A DNA stretch of 64,000 nt from Minisyncoccota bacterium (GTDB taxonomy: Bacteria; Patescibacteriota; Minisyncoccia; Phycocordibacterales; PALSA-1337): NCBI GenBank assembly GCA_041665325.1, contig JBAYJB010000004.1:1048-65047 (forward strand), given 5' to 3'. A program made the position numbers and the translations under genes. The notes under the pieces are model-generated. The model did no database searches, had not been told where the DNA came from, and was given only the letters and a program-made list of their open reading frames with translations. Position 1 is the first letter of the stretch. Each line of letters opens with the position of its first letter. Shown here piece after piece: positions 5,791-39,183 of this stretch.

Positions 5791-5970
5791 AGATAAGTTT
5801 CACCGCAATTGTGCGACCCCTCACCCGCGAAACATTCGCGAAACCGTGAGAAAGCGCATCTTGCGGTGAAAATGTATGTCAGAGAACGATGTTTTGGCTG
5901 TCATATTCATAACATAATGTAAGTTGACTGTCAATGTGCGGTCAGTATTCATTCTTGATACAATTTAGTC

Positions 5971-7682: not shown

Positions 7683-7720
7683 GACTAGAGCCTAGCATAT
7701 CGACATGTTACAATGCCTCT

Positions 7721-15268: not shown

Positions 15269-15296
15269 AGTATAGCACACTCATTAGTTTTGTCAA
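15269..15296 (-). promoter_or_regulatory. Near-consensus sigma-70 promoter with an extended -10 element (TTGACA-N16-TGcTATACT) on the minus strand
   Basis: Reverse strand reads TTGACAaaactaatgagtgtgcTATACT. Confidence 0.6.
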
Positions 15297-24121: not shown

Positions 24122-24808
24122 TTATTTCCTGCCCTTCAACTTCCACTCATCTATCTTTTTGTGGTCTCCTGTTAAGAGGATTTTTGGCACTTTGTATTTT
24201 TTTCCTTTGTATTCGATGACTTCCGGGCGAGTGTAGACATCTGAGCTGGATATGCGATTTTCCTCAACTGATGAGTCGTGCCCGAGAACCCCTGGAATCC
24301 TACGGGTAATAGCATCTATGACGATCATGGCCGGCAGTTCCCCACCAGTTACGACGTAGGGCCCGGTAGAAATATCAACCATTGGGAATACTTTTTTAAT
24401 CCTGACATCAATACCCTCATAGCGGCCGCAAACCAGAACAATGTCCGTGAATTTCTTGAATGAATCGGCGGTAATATTTGAGAACTCCTTACCAGCCGGA
24501 CTAAAGAACACGATCTGAACTTTCTTTTTGGATTTAGCTGATTTTAATTTGGCGCCAACGGCTTTCTCAATAGCCTTAATCACTGGAACAGCCTCAATGA
24601 CCATTCCGGGCCCTCCGCCATATGGACGATTATCAACTCGGCGGTCAGCATATGATGGAGACTTCCCTTTCTTGACCGTCACGAAATCACGCGGATTATA
24701 GTACTTAACCGCTATATGCTTCTCCTTTTGCGCACGACCGAGAATAGAAGCGCCAAGATATGACTCTAGGGATTCTGGGAAAAGCGTGATGATATGGAAG
24801 GTGATCAC
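24122..24808 (-). CDS. trmD: tRNA (guanine37-N1)-methyltransferase TrmD
   Basis: SPOUT-fold TrmD with conserved blocks, located in the rpsP-KH-trmD cluster. Confidence 0.92.
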   Translation of the reverse strand: MITFHIITLFPESLESYLGASILGRAQKEKHIAVKYYNPRDFVTVKKGKSPSYADRRVDNRPYGGGPGMVIEAVPVIKAIEKAVGAKLKSAKSKKKVQIVFFSPAGKEFSNITADSFKKFTDIVLVCGRYEGIDVRIKKVFPMVDISTGPYVVTGGELPAMIVIDAITRRIPGVLGHDSSVEENRISSSDVYTRPEVIEYKGKKYKVPKILLTGDHKKIDEWKLKGRK

Positions 24809-25149
24809 AACTTGAGGTCAGCCATAGCTTCATCAACAGACTTGGAAGCCGAAGCGGCCGAGACCGGAACCGGAGGCGCCATGCGCTCGGCTGACTTGAG
24901 TCCGCCAATCGGCTCATTGATCTTGAGATTGACGCGGCTATTGTTCTTCATGCCGACGACGCGCAGGAGCGTGCGGATGGACTTGGCGGTATTGCCCTGG
25001 CGGCCGATGATCTTGCCCATGTCGGCGGCCGAACATTCGAGGGTGAGCAGGACCCCCATCTCATCTACTGTGCGCACTGTCTTGACTTCATCTGGACTGT
25101 CTACTAACGCCTTCACAACATACTCTAGGAATTGCTGATCTGTATTCAT
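24805..25149 (-). CDS. KH-domain RNA-binding protein (YlqC-like)
   Basis: The GxxG KH motif IIGRQGNTAKSIR, plus the conserved position between rpsP and trmD. Confidence 0.8.
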   Translation of the reverse strand: MNTDQQFLEYVVKALVDSPDEVKTVRTVDEMGVLLTLECSAADMGKIIGRQGNTAKSIRTLLRVVGMKNNSRVNLKINEPIGGLKSAERMAPPVPVSAASASKSVDEAMADLKL

Positions 25150-25235
25150 ATATTCGTATAGACTAACTTTTAATCAGTACTGGCATTCGATACCGTACTA
25201 TCGGAATTGTAGCGAGACGCGCAGCGGGCGTCAAT

Positions 25236-25637
25236 CTAAGCTGTGACAGGAGCGGCCTCGGCTTTTGCCTCTTCTTTGGCGGCGGGAGCTTCGGTTGGTG
25301 CGACGGCAGGAGCAGTCTGGGCGGCGGCGGCCGGAGCGGCGGCTTCTTCCTTCTTGATCGGCTTCTTCTTGGGGAGAGCGTTGAGCTTCTTGCCCGAGAT
25401 TACCTTGTGATTCACGAGGAAATTGTGAAGAGTGAGGGAGAGCTTGGCGCCCTTGGACATCCAGCCCTTGATCTGCTCGATATCAAGCTGATCGACAGTA
25501 TTCTTGCGGCGGGTATCGTACCAACCGAGGTTGCTCAAGTACTTGCCGCTCTTGGGGCCGTTCTTGGAATCAGTCAAAACCACACGAAAAGTCGGTTCGT
25601 GTTTGCGGCCTGTGCGTTGCAAGCGGATCATTAACAT
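25236..25637 (-). CDS. rpsP: 30S ribosomal protein S16 with an Ala/Pro/Lys-rich C-terminal extension
   Basis: MLMIRLQRTGRKHEPTFRVVLTDSKNGPKSGKYL is a typical bS16 N-terminus. Confidence 0.93.
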   Translation of the reverse strand: MLMIRLQRTGRKHEPTFRVVLTDSKNGPKSGKYLSNLGWYDTRRKNTVDQLDIEQIKGWMSKGAKLSLTLHNFLVNHKVISGKKLNALPKKKPIKKEEAAAPAAAAQTAPAVAPTEAPAAKEEAKAEAAPVTA

Positions 25638-25692
25638 GGGTCAGACTCTACCAGATTGCGGATGAGAACGCAACTTTGCTATACTCTGAGCC

Positions 25693-26391
25693 ATGAAAGT
25701 ATTGATCGTCGAGGACGACCGGAACATGGCGGAGACCGTCAAGGAGAGCTTGGCAGCCTACTCTCACACTGTGGACATCTCGCCCGACGGTGCTGACGGA
25801 TCATTCCTTGGCCGAAGCTATGCCTACGACGCGATCGTCCTGGATTATTCCCTGCCCAAGAAAGACGGCCTGGCCGTATGCGACGAGATCAGAAAGTCCG
25901 GCAAAGATACGCCAATCCTCTTCATGTCCGTCTCCGGCGACACCGAAACCAAGATCGCCGCCTTCAAGAGCGGGGCCGACGACTATATCACCAAGCCGTT
26001 CTCGCTCGATGAGCTCCGGGCCCGGCTCGATGCCGTCACACGTCGCTCCCCCGCCCTCAAGAGCCACACCCTAGCGATCGGAGATCTGATGCTCGACCAG
26101 GACACCAATACCGTGAAGCGAGGTGATCGAGCCATCCATCTCACTCGCAAGGAATTCCACATGCTCCAATACTTCATGCAGAATGCCGGGACGGTCCTCT
26201 CTCGCGCCCAGCTCATGGAACATATCTGGACAGCCGACGGCAATCCTTTTTCCAATACCGTAGAAGCCCATATCCGCAACTTGCGCAAGAAGATCAATAG
26301 TAGCGACGCCCCGAACCTGATCATCAACATCCCCGGGCGCGGATATCTCATCGACACCGCCGAGAAGATAGCCAAATTACAGCAAAGATAG
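25693..26391 (+). CDS. OmpR-family response regulator (REC + winged-helix domains); no cognate histidine kinase gene in the window
   Basis: Receiver Asp pocket (VLDYSLPKKDG), the C-terminal Trans_reg_C motif, and no adjacent kinase gene. Confidence 0.88.
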   Translation: MKVLIVEDDRNMAETVKESLAAYSHTVDISPDGADGSFLGRSYAYDAIVLDYSLPKKDGLAVCDEIRKSGKDTPILFMSVSGDTETKIAAFKSGADDYITKPFSLDELRARLDAVTRRSPALKSHTLAIGDLMLDQDTNTVKRGDRAIHLTRKEFHMLQYFMQNAGTVLSRAQLMEHIWTADGNPFSNTVEAHIRNLRKKINSSDAPNLIINIPGRGYLIDTAEKIAKLQQR

Positions 26392-26422
26392 GTTTTTTAG
26401 GGATTTTAGTGATTTTTTGGTC

Positions 26423-26487
26423 TTTCTTCATGAAGATTTGAACTTTTCTTCATGGAAATTTGAAGTTTTCTTGAACGTTCCTTGAAC
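26423..26487 (+). promoter_or_regulatory. Three imperfect direct repeats of about 21 nt (TTTCTTCATGAAGATTTGAAC / TTTTCTTCATGGAAATTTGAAG / TTTTCTTGAACGTTCCTTGAAC); candidate OmpR-type binding sites
   Basis: Tandem repeats with roughly 21-22 bp periodicity immediately downstream of the response-regulator gene. Confidence 0.35.
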
Positions 26488-26644
26488 CAGCCATTGATAT
26501 GATATCCGCGGTTATGAGTCGAAATAACCCTTATCAATCATTTGGTGATGGTCAGTGGGCAAGGATATTTTCTCACCGCCCGGATCTCCGACATCCGGGC
26601 GCCCGCGACAAGACAAGATATCGATCTAGGAAACAGTGAGGCGC

Positions 26645-26690
26645 TACGCCGCTTACCCCTGGCAGGGTGTGAGCGGCGGCGTCTTTTTTG
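26645..26690 (+). terminator. Intrinsic terminator (plus strand) about 270 nt downstream of the response-regulator gene
   Basis: ACGCCGC...GCGGCGGCGT hairpin followed by CTTTTTTGGGG. Confidence 0.55.
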
Positions 26691-26714
26691 GGGGGCTGCT
26701 GGCGAGGATGCGGT

Positions 26715-27473
26715 TTATTTCTGGACGTCGCGAGCGGCTTTGCGATAGTTGCAATAGTCGCAGGATGCGGATGGCTTCGGTGGTTTCTCGAGCATGAGAC
26801 ATGCATGCATATCCGCGAGAGCCTTCTCGACCCACGCATCGTCGCCATCATATGGGATGAGATCGATATCGAACTCGAGCTTGCCGTCGAAAGACTTCCT
26901 ATCAGTCTTGCCGTTGCAATAGACGAAGTAGCCGGTCTTCGAAACCTTGAAGCCGTTCTGACGCAGGAGCCACTGATAGACTTCCATCTGGCGCTTGTAG
27001 CCGATCTGCCATTCCTTGTCGAGAGAGACCTTCTCTTCTTTGCTCGTCGCCTTGTAGTCGACGATGATGAGCTCACCCTTCTTGTTGATCCAGACATCGT
27101 CTACCCCGCCGGTGACCAGGAAGTTGGTCGGCTCATGGACGTATGTCACGCCGCGCTTCATGGCATCGCGCCAGGCATCCATCCGTTCGTCTTGATATGG
27201 CACTATGCCCTTGAGGCCGTAAGCATCCATGAGAGGGTGTGAAGATTTGGCAGCACGATGGATGTCGAACTCCTTCTTGAGGAGAGTGTCCACGGCCGAG
27301 TTCAAGTTGAATGGGAATCCCGGCGGCCTCCCCACCCCGAGTCGACGGTCGAGATAGAAGCACATCGGACAGTTGAGGAAGAGGTCGATCTTAGAACGGC
27401 TTACGCGGAAAGACTCTTTGCTCTCAGGATCAAAGAGGCCTTTGGTGCGGCGGGGATTGTAGAAGTCGGACAT
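26715..27473 (-). CDS. PD-(D/E)xK nuclease of the Cas4/RecB family with four Cys (putative Fe-S cluster); standalone, with no CRISPR or cas genes nearby
   Basis: N-terminal CPMC, motif II GGVDDVW, motif III IVDYKATS, the QxxxY motif QMEVYQWL, and C-terminal CDYCNY. Confidence 0.65.
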   Translation of the reverse strand: MSDFYNPRRTKGLFDPESKESFRVSRSKIDLFLNCPMCFYLDRRLGVGRPPGFPFNLNSAVDTLLKKEFDIHRAAKSSHPLMDAYGLKGIVPYQDERMDAWRDAMKRGVTYVHEPTNFLVTGGVDDVWINKKGELIIVDYKATSKEEKVSLDKEWQIGYKRQMEVYQWLLRQNGFKVSKTGYFVYCNGKTDRKSFDGKLEFDIDLIPYDGDDAWVEKALADMHACLMLEKPPKPSASCDYCNYRKAARDVQK

Positions 27474-27548
27474 GCTGTAATGTTAGCATACGGCAATCCT
27501 CCGCGCGCTTCATTCAAGGTGGGTGGCGAGGTGTTCCGCTTTTCCTCA

Positions 27549-27583
27549 AAAATTTCTAAGTCAAAACTCGAAAAACATGGTCT
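27549..27583 (+). repeat. 35-nt sequence AAAATTTCTAAGTCAAAACTCGAAAAACATGGTCT, copy 1 of 2 (identical copy at 38194..38228)
   Basis: Exact 35/35 identity found by reading; similarity extends a few nt on both sides; intergenic in both cases. Confidence 0.8.
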
Positions 27584-27678
27584 GGTATAGTCTCTTTTTG
27601 CTCCTCCAGCGAAGTGACCACTTTTCGGTCACTTCAAAGAAGTTAAGAGGAGAGCTATCCGGCTGCGCAAGACCAAAT

Positions 27679-28311
27679 CTATTTCGTCGCCACCGTCACC
27701 GCCTGCATCGTTACGGCCGTAAGCGGCTTATCATTGCCATCTACTTGCGAAGCCGCGATGGCGTCCACGACATCCATGCCCGAGACTACCCTACCGAAGA
27801 TCGTATAGCTGTGCGGGAGCGGAGTATCTTTGTGCATGATGAAGAATTGCGAGCCGTTCGTATTCGGGCCGGAATTGGCCATGGCGACCGTGCCGCGAAC
27901 ATAGCCGGCCTTGTAGGAGGGAGTGTTCGAATCGAGCTCGTCGGCAAACTTGTAGCCGGGACCGCCCATACCGGTACCGGTCGGATCGCCGCCCTGGATC
28001 ATGAAGCCCTCGATCACGCGGTGGAAGATCGTGCCATTGTAGAAGCCCTTATTCGCGAGCGTGATGAAGTTCTCGGCGGTCTTGGGCGCATCGGCGTCGT
28101 AAGTCTCGATAACGATCGCTCCCTTGTTGGTGTTGATGGTGACTGTGTGCATAGAATTTTTTGCTGATTGGTTAGTATTTGTAGTCGTGGTTGTAGTTGT
28201 AGTTGTTTCTTCGTTGTTTTTTGTGCCGGCACGATTGTCCAAGAAGAACCAGCCGATGACGATGATAACGATGACGACAACGATGCTGATCCATTGCGAT
28301 TTTGAATTCAT
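27679..28311 (-). CDS. ppiB: Cyclophilin-type peptidyl-prolyl cis-trans isomerase with an N-terminal TM anchor and a poly-Thr linker
   Basis: HRVIEGFMIQGGDPTGTGMGGPGYKFADE and a TTTTTTTTNTN linker. Confidence 0.9.
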   Translation of the reverse strand: MNSKSQWISIVVVIVIIVIGWFFLDNRAGTKNNEETTTTTTTTTNTNQSAKNSMHTVTINTNKGAIVIETYDADAPKTAENFITLANKGFYNGTIFHRVIEGFMIQGGDPTGTGMGGPGYKFADELDSNTPSYKAGYVRGTVAMANSGPNTNGSQFFIMHKDTPLPHSYTIFGRVVSGMDVVDAIAASQVDGNDKPLTAVTMQAVTVATK

Positions 28312-28329
28312 AATATATAAATTATTAAC

Positions 28330-29343
28330 TTAGAGATTATACAGTTCTTTGGCCTTGGCGACTACTTTAGTTTTTATTTCCTCCAAAGTACCACTCATAG
28401 TCGCACCTGAGGCCGCCTTGTGTCCCCCGCCATTCATCGCCACAGCCAACTTGGATACATCATATCTATCGCCGTCCTTGCTGCGGAAATTCATCTTGAT
28501 CTTACCCGGTTCGATCTCGGTCAAAATGCCGGAAACGGCCCATGCGGATACGGTCCGTAACTCATATGTGACTGAAGCGGTATTGATCTTGTCCAGAGGG
28601 ATATTCTTGGCCTTGAGAGCTTCGTTGGATACGACCGCCAAGCCGATCTTGCCTCCACCAAAAACCTCAACCGATTCTAGCGCTAAGGCCTTGAATGACA
28701 AGTCGGCAAGAGTATTGGAATTCTCCATATCAGAGATGAGCTTAGGAAAATCCGGGATGTATTGGAGGAGATCTGCGGCGATGGCGAACGACCTCTGTGT
28801 CGTCAAGCTATATTTGAAACCGCCGGTATCCGTATAGATCCCGATAAACAGATTGGAGGCGATCTCCGGAGTGATCTTGACTCCCCAGATGCCAAATAGC
28901 TCAAATAAGATCTGACAAACAGCCGGGGATGATGCTTCGATCAGATTGATGTCGGCAAAACCGGCATTCGACGCGTGATGATCGATGATGACGCTGCGGA
29001 TCGGAAATGGGAGATCGATCGGCCGGACGCGCGATATCTGCGTAGGCGATCCGGTGTCGAGGATGATGAACAGGTCGAAATCCTTCAGGTCCATCTCGAA
29101 GAAATTATTCTGGACGATCTGGTCGGCGCCGGGAAAATGCATGAACCCGTCCGGAATCTCGGAATCACCTTTGATGACCGTCGCCTTCTTCCCCATCTGT
29201 TCGAGTGCGGCCTTCATGGCCAACGTCGAACCGACAGAATCCGGATCAGGCGACGGATGGCAGTGCAGGAGCACTGACTTCGCCTTCTGGATCTCGGCGA
29301 GGATGAGGGGGGCTTTCTCTTTGATTATCGGGGAGACTTCCAT
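28330..29343 (-). CDS. nrnA: DHH/DHHA1 phosphoesterase (NrnA-like oligoribonuclease/pAp phosphatase)
   Basis: DHH motif IIDHHASN and the DHHA1 motif GGGH. Confidence 0.85.
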   Translation of the reverse strand: MEVSPIIKEKAPLILAEIQKAKSVLLHCHPSPDPDSVGSTLAMKAALEQMGKKATVIKGDSEIPDGFMHFPGADQIVQNNFFEMDLKDFDLFIILDTGSPTQISRVRPIDLPFPIRSVIIDHHASNAGFADINLIEASSPAVCQILFELFGIWGVKITPEIASNLFIGIYTDTGGFKYSLTTQRSFAIAADLLQYIPDFPKLISDMENSNTLADLSFKALALESVEVFGGGKIGLAVVSNEALKAKNIPLDKINTASVTYELRTVSAWAVSGILTEIEPGKIKMNFRSKDGDRYDVSKLAVAMNGGGHKAASGATMSGTLEEIKTKVVAKAKELYNL

Positions 29344-29352
29344 ATTGCCAGT

Positions 29353-29817
29353 CTACTGGAACACGATGGGAATCTCAACCGCAGCATCATGCACGGGCAA
29401 ACCGGAGGGGTTGTCTTTCTTCAGGATGAGCGCACCACGGCGGCAGTAGTCGGCGGCGAACGGCGGCTTGGCGAAGACGAGTTCGGCCGTGAATGGTACC
29501 TGGCCTTCGGTCATCCAGTCGGATTGCGCTTGGGCATAGCTCTCAGCGATGATCAGGCCGTCCCAATCGACGAGGACGATCGGGAAGCTCGCTTCGAAGT
29601 ACCACGTCCCCGGTGCCGTACCCGATACGATGAGCGGCGAGGCGATGGCACCACCGGACTGTGGCAAATCGATGATGAGCGGCGAGGTAGAAGCTGATAC
29701 TGAGGCAGGCGCAGAAGCCGGCCCCGGTATCGGCGCGAACATGCGGGCGGCGGCGAGTGCGAACGCAGCTACAACGACTACCAGGATGAGCAAGATGACC
29801 TGGCCGATGGTTTTCAT
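29353..29817 (-). CDS. Secreted GerMN/Gmad2 Ig-like domain protein
   Basis: Signal/TM segment and YFEASFPIVLVDWDGLIIAESYAQ, a pattern I read as the Gmad2 family. Confidence 0.6.
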   Translation of the reverse strand: MKTIGQVILLILVVVVAAFALAAARMFAPIPGPASAPASVSASTSPLIIDLPQSGGAIASPLIVSGTAPGTWYFEASFPIVLVDWDGLIIAESYAQAQSDWMTEGQVPFTAELVFAKPPFAADYCRRGALILKKDNPSGLPVHDAAVEIPIVFQ

Positions 29818-29879: not shown

Positions 29880-31208
29880 ATGAAACGCACATATATCAAG
29901 GATCTCAAGGACGCGATCGGCCAGGAGGTCTCCATCTCCGGCTGGGTGGACATCCGCCGCGACCACGGCAAGCTCATCTTCATCGACTTACGCGACGTGA
30001 GCGGCAAGGTGCAGATGGTGGTCCTGCCGAACCACAAAGAGGCGCACGATGCCGCCAAGGAACTCCGCAGTGAATGGGTTGTGACCGTGACCGGCAAGGT
30101 CAATGCCCGTCCGACCAAGATGGTCAAAGAGGGTGAGCTCAATGGAACGCTCGAGCTCGAAGTCCTGTCGATCGCAGTGTTGTCCGCCGCCAAGGAATTG
30201 CCGTTCGAGCTCGGAGCCGACGTCAACATGGACACTTATCTGGACAACCTACCACTCACGCTCCGAACATCGCGAGCATGCGCCATATTCACGGTTCAAT
30301 CCACGATAACCAAGTCATATAGGGATTTCTTCAACAGCAAAGGATTCATCGAATTCCAAGCTCCGAAACTAATCGGCGACGATGCCGAGGGCGGAGCGAA
30401 CTCGTTCGATGTCACTTATTTCAAACACATCGCACACCTAGCCCAGAGCCCACAGCTCTACAAACAGATCATGGTCGGCATATTCGAGCGGGTATTCGCC
30501 ATCGGCAATGTATATCGAGCCGAGAAGCATTCGACCACTCGCCATCTCAACGAATACACATCCATGGATATGGAAATGGGATTCATCAAATCATACGAGG
30601 ATATTATGGATATGGAGACCGAGATGCTCGCTTACGTCACCGGTGAGCTTCGGAAATCGTGCGCGGCGGAGTTTACCTTGCTCAAAGCAGCCATCCCGGA
30701 AGTGCCCGCAAAGATCCCGCGTCTGACTTTGCGCGAGGCCCAGAAGCTCATCACGGCCGCGACCGGCAAGGATTGCACCAACGAACCAGACCTCGAGCCG
30801 GAGCATGAACGCTGGCTATGCGACTATTCCGCGAAGAATCTCGGCTCCGATTTCATCTTCATCACGAACTTCCCTACCGCCAAGCGGCCTTTCTATACTT
30901 ACAGGAATGAGAAAGACCCGGCCTACACCATGGGATTCGATCTGCTCTTCCGCGGAGTCGAGATCACAACTGGCGCCCAGCGTATCCACATATATGACGA
31001 TCTCATTGCTTCGATGAAAGAGAAAGGTCTTGATCCGGAGAAATTCAAGTTCTATCTGCAGGCATTCAAATACGGCATGCCGCCGCATGGTGGCTTCGGC
31101 TTCGGGCTTGAGCGCTTCACGGGCAAGCTCCTCGGTATCGACAACGTCAAAGAAGCGACTCTCTTCCCGAGAGATCTGAATAGGATCGATAACCTCCTTT
31201 CGCAATAG
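29880..31208 (+). CDS. aspS: Aspartate--tRNA ligase, short archaeal/eukaryal-type class IIb form (Asx-type; could be non-discriminating)
   Basis: 442 aa, N-terminal OB-fold domain, motif 3 GMPPHGGFGFGLERF, and no bacterial GAD insertion domain. Confidence 0.8.
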   Translation: MKRTYIKDLKDAIGQEVSISGWVDIRRDHGKLIFIDLRDVSGKVQMVVLPNHKEAHDAAKELRSEWVVTVTGKVNARPTKMVKEGELNGTLELEVLSIAVLSAAKELPFELGADVNMDTYLDNLPLTLRTSRACAIFTVQSTITKSYRDFFNSKGFIEFQAPKLIGDDAEGGANSFDVTYFKHIAHLAQSPQLYKQIMVGIFERVFAIGNVYRAEKHSTTRHLNEYTSMDMEMGFIKSYEDIMDMETEMLAYVTGELRKSCAAEFTLLKAAIPEVPAKIPRLTLREAQKLITAATGKDCTNEPDLEPEHERWLCDYSAKNLGSDFIFITNFPTAKRPFYTYRNEKDPAYTMGFDLLFRGVEITTGAQRIHIYDDLIASMKEKGLDPEKFKFYLQAFKYGMPPHGGFGFGLERFTGKLLGIDNVKEATLFPRDLNRIDNLLSQ

Positions 31209-37525: not shown

Positions 37526-37555
37526 TTGACAAGTAGTAGAGTTTAATGCTATAAT
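37526..37555 (+). promoter_or_regulatory. Consensus sigma-70 promoter TTGACA-N18-TGcTATAAT driving the 37667 gene with an about 105-nt structured leader
   Basis: TTGACAagtagtagagtttaatgcTATAAT. Confidence 0.6.
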
Positions 37556-37666
37556 ATAAGCAGATTCTTAATCGTATGGTTAAGTCGTTTCCTGCATCGC
37601 AAGATGGGAAATAAGGGGGTATGTGCGTTCCTCATCTAATGCACAGTTCAAAGAAAAAGGTGTTGT

Positions 37667-38140
37667 ATGACACAATACAAAATAGTAAATGGTCCGTCTA
37701 AACACGACCTTGACATAGCATTCATCAATCGGATCAATGGGAAGCGCCTGCCCGTTGAGTTTTGGGTCGAGGGGCTATATAGCACAAATCCGAACGAACG
37801 AACGAATGTATGTGCCGTCATAAACAGTCTTAGCTGGGAAGATGGTTCCGGCGAAAGCTGGAACTTCGAGGGATATGTCACCTGCCACGACAAGGAGGTT
37901 ATGTATCCAGGCAAGATTAAGGGTCAATACTGGACGAGCAGTCGTGAGGGGATCATGACCATCAGTCAGGAGGTTGACGGACTCAACACGATAATCGTGA
38001 GCAAGAGAAGTGATGATTACCATGCCCAGCTGGCCCACTATTGCGGTGCTTGGGATTGTGGAAAAACGGCTGACGAGGCCATCGGCGCTCTGATCCGAAC
38101 ACACAGCAAAAAGTTTGGCATCAAGCTCGAAAGCAGCTAA
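37667..38140 (+). CDS. Hypothetical protein (157 aa)
   Basis: ORF bounded by a consensus promoter and a strong terminator; no motifs recognised. Confidence 0.55.
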   Translation: MTQYKIVNGPSKHDLDIAFINRINGKRLPVEFWVEGLYSTNPNERTNVCAVINSLSWEDGSGESWNFEGYVTCHDKEVMYPGKIKGQYWTSSREGIMTISQEVDGLNTIIVSKRSDDYHAQLAHYCGAWDCGKTADEAIGALIRTHSKKFGIKLESS

Positions 38141-38189
38141 GCCCCCTCAAGGAAGTCCACGCGACAACCTTGCGGGGGCTTTCTTTTTT
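38141..38189 (+). terminator. Strong intrinsic terminator
   Basis: GCCCCCTCAAGG...CCTTGCGGGGGC followed by TTTCTTTTTT. Confidence 0.75.
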
Positions 38190-38193
38190 GCAT

Positions 38194-38228
38194 AAAATTT
38201 CTAAGTCAAAACTCGAAAAACATGGTCT
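38194..38228 (+). repeat. 35-nt sequence, copy 2 of 2 (identical to 27549..27583)
   Basis: Exact identity; lies between the terminator and the 3' end of the anti-sigma gene. Confidence 0.8.
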
Positions 38229-38254
38229 AGTAATACGCGCTATGCTCGTCTTTC

Positions 38255-38598
38255 CTATGCGCCGACAGTCTGGGCAAACCGCGCATGCCTCACATTCCTC
38301 ACGATATCCGATACGAACCAAACCCCAATAGCGACGGCCAGAACGAGAGTAGACTGTACGCCAAGCTCGGTATGAGCAAATGCCCCCAACAGATACTTCG
38401 CACACGCGACGAAACCACCGACATGGGACATATTTCCCAAGACATGCGGCACGGAAACCAGAGAGACGAACGAGATGACTGAGACCGCCAAGGCCGCCGC
38501 CTTCGCCGTCACCGGACTGAAGACCCGGCGCATCAGATGGACCGCACGCACGCGACGCATGATATCGGTAGTGAGTTGTGCTTCTTTTTGGTTCATTT
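38255..38598 (-). CDS. Putative membrane anti-sigma factor (about 114 aa, start MNQKEAQ) overlapping the stop of the ECF sigma gene
   Basis: Overlaps the ECF sigma gene by 4 nt and has two TM segments. The 222-aa ORF in the track has a spurious N-terminal extension. Confidence 0.45.
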
Positions 38599-39183
38599 TA
38601 TTGATATTGGGGACAAGGACATATTCATGTCTATCTTTTGCATCTCTTTCTTGGCGCGATGGATGCGCTGGCGGATCACTCCGTGCGAGACGCCTTCCCG
38701 CTCGGCGATCTCCTTCTGCGGCAACCCATCGATGAAGTGGAGCTCGACGGCGCGCCGCAACAAGACCGGCAATTTCGAGAGCAATCTCATGACATGATCG
38801 GCCGTAAGTCTCTGCTCGAGCGCCGCCAGGCCCGCCTGATCCGGGATGATCTCCGCGAACTCCGGTTCGAGATCGAGCGAGACCGTATCGGCGCGCTGTT
38901 TCTTGCGATAAGCCGTGTAGCACTGGTTGACTAGGATGGTATAAGCCCAGGAAGAGAACGAGGCCCCTGCCTGCGGGCGGAACTTCCCCGCGGCGATATA
39001 GATGCGCACAAAAGTCTCCTGGACGACATCATTGGCGTCATCCTCGTTGCCGAGGATCGAGGTAGCCTTGCGTACAAATGCACGCTGATATCGGCCCACT
39101 AGCTCCTCGAAAAAGGCCGGTTTATCTATAGAAAGCTTGAGGATATCGGCGTCCCCCAGCGACTTTGGATCTGCAATATTCAT
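38593..39183 (-). CDS. ECF-type RNA polymerase sigma factor (sigma-70 regions 2 and 4)
   Basis: FVRIYIAAGKFRPQAGASFSSWAYTILVNQCYTAYRKK in region 2 and a region 4 helix-turn-helix. GGTTATAAT lies 8 nt upstream of the ATG. Confidence 0.85.
   Translation of the reverse strand: MNIADPKSLGDADILKLSIDKPAFFEELVGRYQRAFVRKATSILGNEDDANDVVQETFVRIYIAAGKFRPQAGASFSSWAYTILVNQCYTAYRKKQRADTVSLDLEPEFAEIIPDQAGLAALEQRLTADHVMRLLSKLPVLLRRAVELHFIDGLPQKEIAEREGVSHGVIRQRIHRAKKEMQKIDMNMSLSPISIK

Follow-up and report, generated by a model that had tools for sequence, protein, structure and literature searches.

A duplicated 39-nucleotide spacer sequence in a Paceibacteria-like genome and a predicted antisense promoter at one of its copies

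Results and discussion

A 39-nt sequence was found in two intergenic spacers of the window, which is the whole 64,000-nucleotide stretch of DNA that was analysed. We tentatively explain it, at somewhat less than even odds (a probability of about 0.45), as the product of a recent ectopic duplication, in which an orphan antisense promoter would have copy 1 as its upstream half and copy 2 would be silent. The function of the repeat is uncertain, and it possibly has none. The homologues of the neighbouring PD-(D/E)XK nuclease and of the sigma factor carry the names Candidatus Taylorbacteria, Parcubacteria or Paceibacterota, which marks the host as a CPR/Patescibacteria genome that is Paceibacteria-like; the sigma protein matches NCBI MFA6432714.1 (Candidatus Paceibacterota).

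Identification of the repeat

The first-pass annotation had reported an identical 35-mer at two places in the same orientation, and this was confirmed. The 35-mer AAAATTTCTAAGTCAAAACTCGAAAAACATGGTCT is present with perfect identity at 27549-27583 and 38194-38228, in both cases on the + strand, and it occurs exactly twice in the window, the copies being 10.6 kb apart. A chance match was ruled out, as 100 dinucleotide-preserving shuffles gave 0 matches of this kind. With the repeat finder the match grew to 39 nt, of which 38 are identical, and the sole mismatch is found at repeat position 36 (G in copy 1, A in copy 2). The similarity does not continue into the flanks: local alignment of the 40-120-nt flanks gave scores at the level of shuffled sequence (p = 0.5-0.98), showing no homology outside the 39-mer and leaving sharp borders on both copies. 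Partial copies were also absent, since no 16-mer of the repeat was seen elsewhere in the window at up to 2 mismatches.

An assembly artefact was rejected on three grounds. The repeat is shorter than the assembler k of 141 (contig ERZ27249449 k141_377210), it is carried by further assemblies, and two independent Logan contigs terminate exactly within the perfect 35-nt block, which we infer to be the break expected of a short-k de Bruijn assembly at a real repeat. The further assemblies belong to strain B, a sister strain present in JGI metagenome Ga0265292 and in a second ENA assembly. Both copies were found at orthologous sites in the second ENA assembly and in the JGI assembly, and in strain B copy 1 (loci L003/L010) and copy 2 (loci L002/L014) are base-for-base the same as here. 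The repeat is real and far beyond chance.

The features that surround the two copies are as follows.

27549..27587, + strand: repeat copy 1, 39 nt including the perfect 35 nt, inside a spacer of 205 nt that runs from the cyclophilin stop to the PD-(D/E)XK start
38194..38232, + strand: repeat copy 2, 38/39 identical to copy 1, between the terminator of a 157-aa ORF and the stop of a putative anti-sigma gene
27679..28311, - strand: cyclophilin-type PPIase gene (Pfam Pro_isomerase, E = 7e-48), the last gene of the Gmad2/DHH/cyclophilin operon
27480..27488, - strand: TGCTAACAT, the extended -10 that serves the leaderless PD-(D/E)XK gene (its start codon is 27473-27471); it stands apart from the repeat
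38141..38189, + strand: strong intrinsic terminator of the 157-aa ORF, a 39-nt hairpin and T-run (-24.9 kcal/mol, z = -4.5)
38255-38596, - strand: small membrane ORF that follows the ECF sigma gene and is, judged only by its position, a putative anti-sigma factor
38593-39183, - strand: ECF sigma factor gene, in the same operon as the small membrane ORF (operon 38255..39183)

Genomic location of the two copies

As had been proposed, both copies lie just 3' of the stop of a minus-strand gene. Going right from copy 1, the cyclophilin stop is reached after 92 nt; going right from copy 2, 22 nt separate the repeat from the stop of the small membrane ORF, for which a Pfam search gave no match. Copy 2 is thus enclosed between the stop codon of the ECF sigma operon and the terminator hairpin, the latter stopping 4 nt short of the repeat. 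At a distance of 1.2 kb from copy 1 there is an orphan gene for an OmpR-type response regulator. On the other side of the copy 1 spacer, the promoter arrangement of the PD-(D/E)XK gene is the same in three relatives (L004, L006 and L007). Its -10 element on the minus strand overlaps a near-mirror element, TGTTAGCAT, on the + strand (window 27478-27491, 7.2 bits), and such a palindromic -10 pair might fire both ways.

The 10.6-kb interval between the copies contains the AspRS gene, and no integrase, transposase, tRNA gene or phage gene appears there in the gene and Pfam lists; the description of the interval as one with aspS and lacking an integrase was therefore accurate. This AspRS, the only one seen, has 442 aa (window 29880-31208), a length that matches the non-discriminating AspRS of archaeal type. 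A GatC ORF and an Amidase-family, GatA-like ORF were observed at the right end of the contig (window 62533-63969; L019 1883-2176), and together with the 442-aa AspRS these would fit tRNA-dependent Asn/Gln synthesis. A replication terminus or Ter site was ruled out, as the window displays no switch in gene orientation and its GC skew is merely noisy.

Copy number and comparison with relatives

Copies were counted over 72.6 kb of the 154,757-bp contig ERZ27249449 k141_377210, comprising the window (bases 88561-152560 of the contig) with 6.4 kb to its left and 2.2 kb to its right. Only two copies were present in this stretch, the additional 8.6 kb contributing none. Further copies were likewise absent from the strain B contigs, including the additional genes of that strain, and the repeat was absent from the loci of relatives. 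The central 23-mer had 0 matches among 185,579 GTDB species genomes. The left 19-mer had 12, one of them in a Paceibacterota genome, with an identity that did not go beyond the searched 19-mer (21-28 of the 39 positions). Three scans of IMG/VR returned zero matches, on which a phage or viral origin was rejected, and in the JGI metagenomes the repeat was seen only at the two orthologous loci of strain B. The idea of a miniature repeat family was consequently not supported, nor did the search for further copies yield any in the contig stretch, in the relatives' loci or among the GTDB representatives.

Relatives with about 80% protein identity share the order DUF3298 / ECF sigma / anti-sigma / variable genes / AspRS / Gmad2 / DHH / cyclophilin / PD-(D/E)XK / response regulator / S16, and those that keep this order have no repeat at either site. 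Their spacer between cyclophilin and PD-(D/E)XK measures 30-78 nt, against 205 nt here, and holds only a terminator and/or the PD-(D/E)XK promoter. For the copy 2 site the closest relative found was L020, whose sigma factor is 85% identical; the distance from the terminator T-run to the anti-sigma stop is 20 nt in this relative versus 65 nt here, and it becomes 26 nt once the 39-mer is subtracted. Both sites thus look filled in this species, and its closest neighbours have them empty. The empty sites in the neighbours, the presence of two copies only and the lack of homologues all point to the repeat being a recent, species-specific gain.

Comparison of the two strains

Alignment of strain A, represented by the window, with strain B (window 24580-29687 versus L003) revealed near-identical blocks that alternate with patches of 150-400 nt in which the strains are 10-30% divergent. 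This fine mosaic suggests frequent short-tract homologous recombination in this CPR population. Both repeat copies are unchanged between the two strains, which would fit selection but is uninformative here, because the genomes are mosaic and copy 2 is located in a block of 99.87% identity. Strain conservation was thus dropped as a sign of constraint. A further short spacer insertion was seen in this species: the spacer between S16 and the response regulator carries in strain B an insertion of about 85 nt (window 25676-25686; L003 3990-4090), which contains the GC-rich palindrome CTGCCTGCCGGCAGGCAG and a second promoter of the TGCTATACT type.

Between its repeat copies, strain B has extra genes that the window lacks (L010 1-3916; L014 5812-7907, 10342-11595): a PemK toxin, Ser_hydrolase with His_Phos_1, a 417-aa ORF, and a second ECF-sigma / RND-like block that adjoins MsrA. 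Given these strain B-only genes, gene content varies in the middle of the 10.6-kb interval, and the part from AspRS through cyclophilin is conserved. Direct repeats of att-like length that bracket a segment with a strain-variable middle could be read as attL/attR-type remains of the integration of the 10.6-kb segment. This reading is contradicted by the relatives without the repeat, which share the gene order across both junctions: L004, L006 and L007 keep AspRS/Gmad2/DHH/cyclophilin beside PD-(D/E)XK, with the sigma cluster on the other side. The essential AspRS gene within the segment, the lack of an integrase, tRNA gene or phage genes and the lack of a clear step in GC content at either repeat also speak against it, and we put its probability close to nil. 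An island or att boundary was accordingly rejected, in agreement with the earlier opinion against a simple mobile-element boundary.

The stretch that is bounded by the FAD-oxidase gene and by the terminator adjoining copy 2 is a hotspot of gene replacement (window 37526-38140; L002 2301-3060; L020 1332-1688). Three unrelated ORFs were found in it: the window has one of 157 aa, strain B one for a membrane protein of 105 aa, and the 85% relative L020 one of 118 aa. The 157-aa ORF looks foreign on its upstream sequence, because no other gene was seen to combine a perfect TTGACA-18-TGcTATAAT promoter with a long leader. The identity between the strains rises from 79-93% to the 99.87% of the following block exactly where this ORF stops (38140/38141).

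The position of copy 2 beside this hotspot is one of several observations that would suit the footprint or solo end of a small mobile element, or a tiny insertion lacking terminal inverted repeats that targets DNA just past T-rich or terminator sequence, the two spacers having been hit independently. The repeat fills both sites here and neither of them in the nearest other species, its borders are sharp, and on the + strand both copies come within 4-6 nt of a preceding T-rich run, which at copy 2 is the T-tract of a genuine terminator. Against this, no terminal inverted repeats or palindrome were apparent on reading the repeat, no hairpin was found, and the flanks (TCA / ... / TAGT and CAT / ... 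/ ATAC) contain no direct repeat that would indicate a target-site duplication. No transposase or integrase lies nearby, nothing related was found in IMG/VR, GTDB or other JGI contigs, and at 39 nt the repeat is smaller than any known autonomous or miniature element. With only two copies in the 72.6 kb, where such families typically have 10 or more per genome, and without these structural marks, a MITE/REP-like family was rejected, and a mobile footprint of any kind is in our judgement unlikely.

Promoter architecture of the genome

The extended -10 motif TGnTAnnnT was found with its first T 15-16 nt before the start codon in at least 17 genes, and no conserved -35 was detected upstream of the window's genes. 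This spacing implies that the mRNAs of most genes of this genome would be leaderless. Of the 91 TGnTAnnnT sites in the window, 42 are intergenic, against at most 18% of the bases, and the other promoters of this genome exhibit no upstream A/T preference. Examples of such promoters are located at 7706(+), 25653(-), 25677(+), 27488(-), 29832(-), 29864(+), 32331(+), 39227(+), 45989(-), 54498(-) and 59200(-). The leaderless examples include one GTG start (59185), and a Shine-Dalgarno sequence is usually absent from the window's genes. Intergenic TGnTAnnnT sites without an annotated start at 15-16 nt were also seen, at 15277(-), 24071(-), 5956(+), 6226(+) and 22531(-); these are candidate promoters for leadered mRNAs, small ORFs or small RNAs. 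The site at 5956 reads TGATACAAT followed by TTAGTC-ATG.

The predicted promoter at copy 1

Two further features were identified at copy 1, on the strand that runs antisense to cyclophilin.

27583..27591, + strand: extended -10 TGGTATAGT, with a predicted transcription start near 27598
27601..27652, + strand: stem-loop region just past the predicted start, in which CUCCUC/GAGGAG pairing surrounds a perfect 9-bp hairpin (27611-27635)

Copy 1 ends with the first five bases of this -10 (T, G, G, T, A), and the other four belong to the unique flank. A position weight matrix was built from 20 leaderless-gene promoters of the window. With this matrix, GTCTGGTATAGT at copy 1 scored 10.5 bits, which ranked 25 among 127,978 positions and fell inside the range of the training promoters; the aspS promoter carries the same -10 hexamer (TGTTATAGT). 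The view that TGgTATAGT at copy 1 is a good extended -10 was thus upheld, an extended -10 without a -35 being the normal promoter type of this genome. The copy 1 repeat would extend from about -49 to -11 of this predicted promoter on the + strand, and the two copies differ solely at -14, where copy 1 has G.

The aligned bases at copy 2, GTCTAGTAATAC (TAGTAATAC), scored 0.4 bits with the same matrix, and a matrix scan of the copy 2 spacer for other promoters found nothing above 6.1 bits. An antisense promoter module common to both copies, as had been put forward, was therefore not borne out: the -10 lies at and past the repeat's edge and is missing from copy 2, so the copies do not share promoter activity. 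From the G-to-A difference and the different flank, which abolish the -10, copy 2 is most likely a transcriptionally silent paralogue.

A minus-strand promoter that uses TTGACT inside the repeat was also considered and rejected, as no -10 accompanies it at either copy. The mini-ORF ATG-TTT-TTC-GAG-TTT-TGA on the minus strand inside the repeat was rejected because no usable -10 or ribosome-binding site is present at a working distance.

The suggestion of a regulatory, transcription-factor site fared no better, given that the repeat has no internal symmetry and that no promoter near copy 2 is available for control. In its wider form, this reading holds that the repeat is a DNA-binding site (an operator, a roadblock or a nucleoid-protein site) of a lineage-specific protein and is held identical by selection. 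The 38/39 identity amid unrelated flanks is consistent with it, as are the roughly phased A-tracts, which suggest bent DNA when read from the sequence, and the nearby response regulator gene. However, neither a dyad nor a clear direct-repeat symmetry could be recognised, the site is absent in relatives and has no third occurrence in the 72.6 kb, and an exact site of 39 nt is far longer than known operators. We therefore regard a binding site as very unlikely. Motifs of the ECF-sigma, sigma-54, CtsR, IHF, PhoB-type and Tn3 terminal-repeat kinds, compared by eye as leads only, did not fit in spacing or in the order of their parts.

Analysis of the antisense frame and of RNA structure

A TTG at 27598, at leaderless distance from the predicted promoter, opens a frame of 189 codons antisense to cyclophilin. 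Between the strains, this frame displays 0 synonymous and 16 non-synonymous codon differences, as against 16 synonymous and 0 non-synonymous changes in the cyclophilin frame. This demonstrates that the + strand ORF is non-coding, and a leaderless protein gene from TTG 27598 was ruled out.

The + strand segment 27597-27678 folds at -25.4 kcal/mol (z = -2.4). The perfect 9-bp hairpin that had been noticed near copy 1 is indeed present and occurs once in the window. No U-tract was found at this hairpin on either strand; the stem-loop is for this reason not a canonical terminator, and its use as the cyclophilin terminator was rejected.

The repeat itself is unstructured, with minimum free energies of -1 to -5.4 kcal/mol that were no better than those of shuffled sequences on either strand. 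Searches of both loci with the Rfam 15 covariance models gave nothing at the gathering threshold, the best sub-threshold hits having E = 0.45-9. A structured RNA or known RNA family was rejected, there being no fold above shuffles and no Rfam match even at E values up to 10.

Lack of structure is usual for single-strand binding sites and would suit an RNA element shared by the 3'-UTRs of the two minus-strand mRNAs, which after their stop codons would read UACYAGACCAUGUUUUUCGAGUUUUGACUUAGAAAUUUU. Such an element, U-rich and unstructured, could be bound by an RNase, an RNA-binding protein or a small RNA, and it could link two cell-envelope-related operons, ECF sigma/anti-sigma and Gmad2/DHH/cyclophilin. 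Each copy points the same way with respect to the minus-strand operon upstream of it, and copy 2 is flanked by the stop codon of the ECF sigma operon and by the only hairpin able to terminate that operon. The distances to the stop codon differ (22 versus 92 nt), as does the surrounding architecture, and no complementary partner was found within the window. Relatives that have these operons lack the element, which is thus not conserved as a regulatory feature, and we consider a shared 3'-UTR function quite unlikely.

Proposed origin of the repeat

The reading that we prefer, an ectopic duplication with a promoter at one copy, may be described as a series of steps. A spacer patch of about 39 bp, rich in A-tracts and unstructured, would have been copied ectopically in the recent ancestry of the species, and would now occupy two operon-end spacers without forming a dispersed family or a mobile-element border. 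At copy 1, the last five bases of the patch together with four flank bases would create the extended -10, and we infer that this promoter fires. Transcription would begin near 27598 on the + strand and give an untranslated RNA, the first approximately 55 nt of which are predicted to fold into the stable stem-loop before the transcript runs antisense into the 3' end of cyclophilin. At copy 2, the G-to-A difference and the different flank would remove the -10.

The copying mechanism is proposed, by analogy only, to be SPDIR (short-patch double illegitimate recombination). No diagnostic microhomology was found at the repeat junctions. Both sites being filled relative to other species, neither is clearly the donor, and a third (source) copy may be present in the remaining ~82 kb of the contig or in the rest of the genome. 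It also counts against duplicated promoter-upstream DNA that there is no obvious reason for copying it without its -10, and the -10 at copy 1 could be a chance product of the junction. A different outcome, which we hold to be decidedly unlikely, is that the repeat represents a newly acquired functional module, acting in the 3'-UTR or by DNA binding and coupling the ECF sigma/anti-sigma and secreted-cyclophilin operons, or the signature of an unrecognised way in which CPR bacteria, dependent as they are on DNA uptake, insert very short patches beside terminators.

If the duplication reading is true, the locus provides a small, clean case of a reduced CPR genome that gained non-coding DNA by the copying of a few dozen bases, and possibly a new antisense promoter. 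It would serve as a useful anecdote of promoter birth that changes nothing larger. Wider specialist interest would arise only if the repeat is a selected regulatory site or reflects a new insertion mechanism. The promoter pattern of the lineage is a by-product that is probably worth more than the repeat itself, as TGnTAnnnT could improve the prediction of gene starts and small RNAs in metagenome-assembled Paceibacteria genomes.

Comparison with known systems

Putative mobile promoters (PMP) are the closest described class. As defined by Matus-Garcia, Nijveen & van Passel (2012; summarised in PMC3575422), these are sequences of at least 50 nt with at least 80% identity, located at -150 to -50 upstream of two genes, and the authors leave open whether recent duplication or selection accounts for them. 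The repeat resembles them in being highly similar non-coding DNA at two places near unrelated genes; PMP mostly occur as pairs and have no known mobiliser (PMC3575422). It differs in that its similarity covers only 39 nt, compared with at least 50 nt, with flanks at chance level, and in that a -10 is found at one copy only. On the + strand, which carries the predicted promoter, both copies face the 3' ends of minus-strand genes and neither precedes a protein gene. On the minus strand, copy 1 lies 76-114 nt upstream of the PD-(D/E)XK start and copy 2 precedes no gene. Because of its length and because it is not upstream of both genes, the repeat is not a member of the class, although it can be said to work like a PMP.

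SPDIR is described as the ectopic copying of an intragenomic or foreign single-stranded patch of 3 to ~100 bp into an unrelated site (Harms et al. 2016, as cited in bioRxiv 10.1101/2023.11.22.568220). Experimental demonstration is reported only from Acinetobacter baylyi, at very low frequency, and not from CPR bacteria. The sharp borders and the lack of a transposase and of target duplication are shared with SPDIR as it is presented there. Unlike in SPDIR, the donor, the recipient and the junction microhomologies are not identifiable here, the mechanism being proposed and not demonstrated.

MITE, REP, ERIC and Correia elements are also short repeats in spacers near gene ends, sometimes with outward promoters. 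They carry terminal inverted repeats or palindromic hairpins, often with target-site duplications, and occur in tens to hundreds of copies, whereas the present repeat has none of these structures and two copies. The att cores share with it the form of direct repeats of a few tens of bp around a segment with strain-variable genes. They differ from it in that the present locus lacks an integrase and a tRNA target, retains the ancestral order of the flanking genes and encloses an essential gene.

UP elements, the A-tract regions that Estrem et al. in 1998 reportedly described upstream of sigma-70 promoters, are resembled by the A/T-rich tracts at approximately -40 to -60 of copy 1, with a strong extended -10 and no -35. 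The match to their consensus is imperfect, the other promoters here show no upstream A/T preference, and the tract at copy 2 comes without a promoter. The predicted promoter at copy 1, and at this copy only, corresponds to the sigma-70 extended -10 type of the genome, its TGnTAnnnT falling within the score range of the genome's own promoters.
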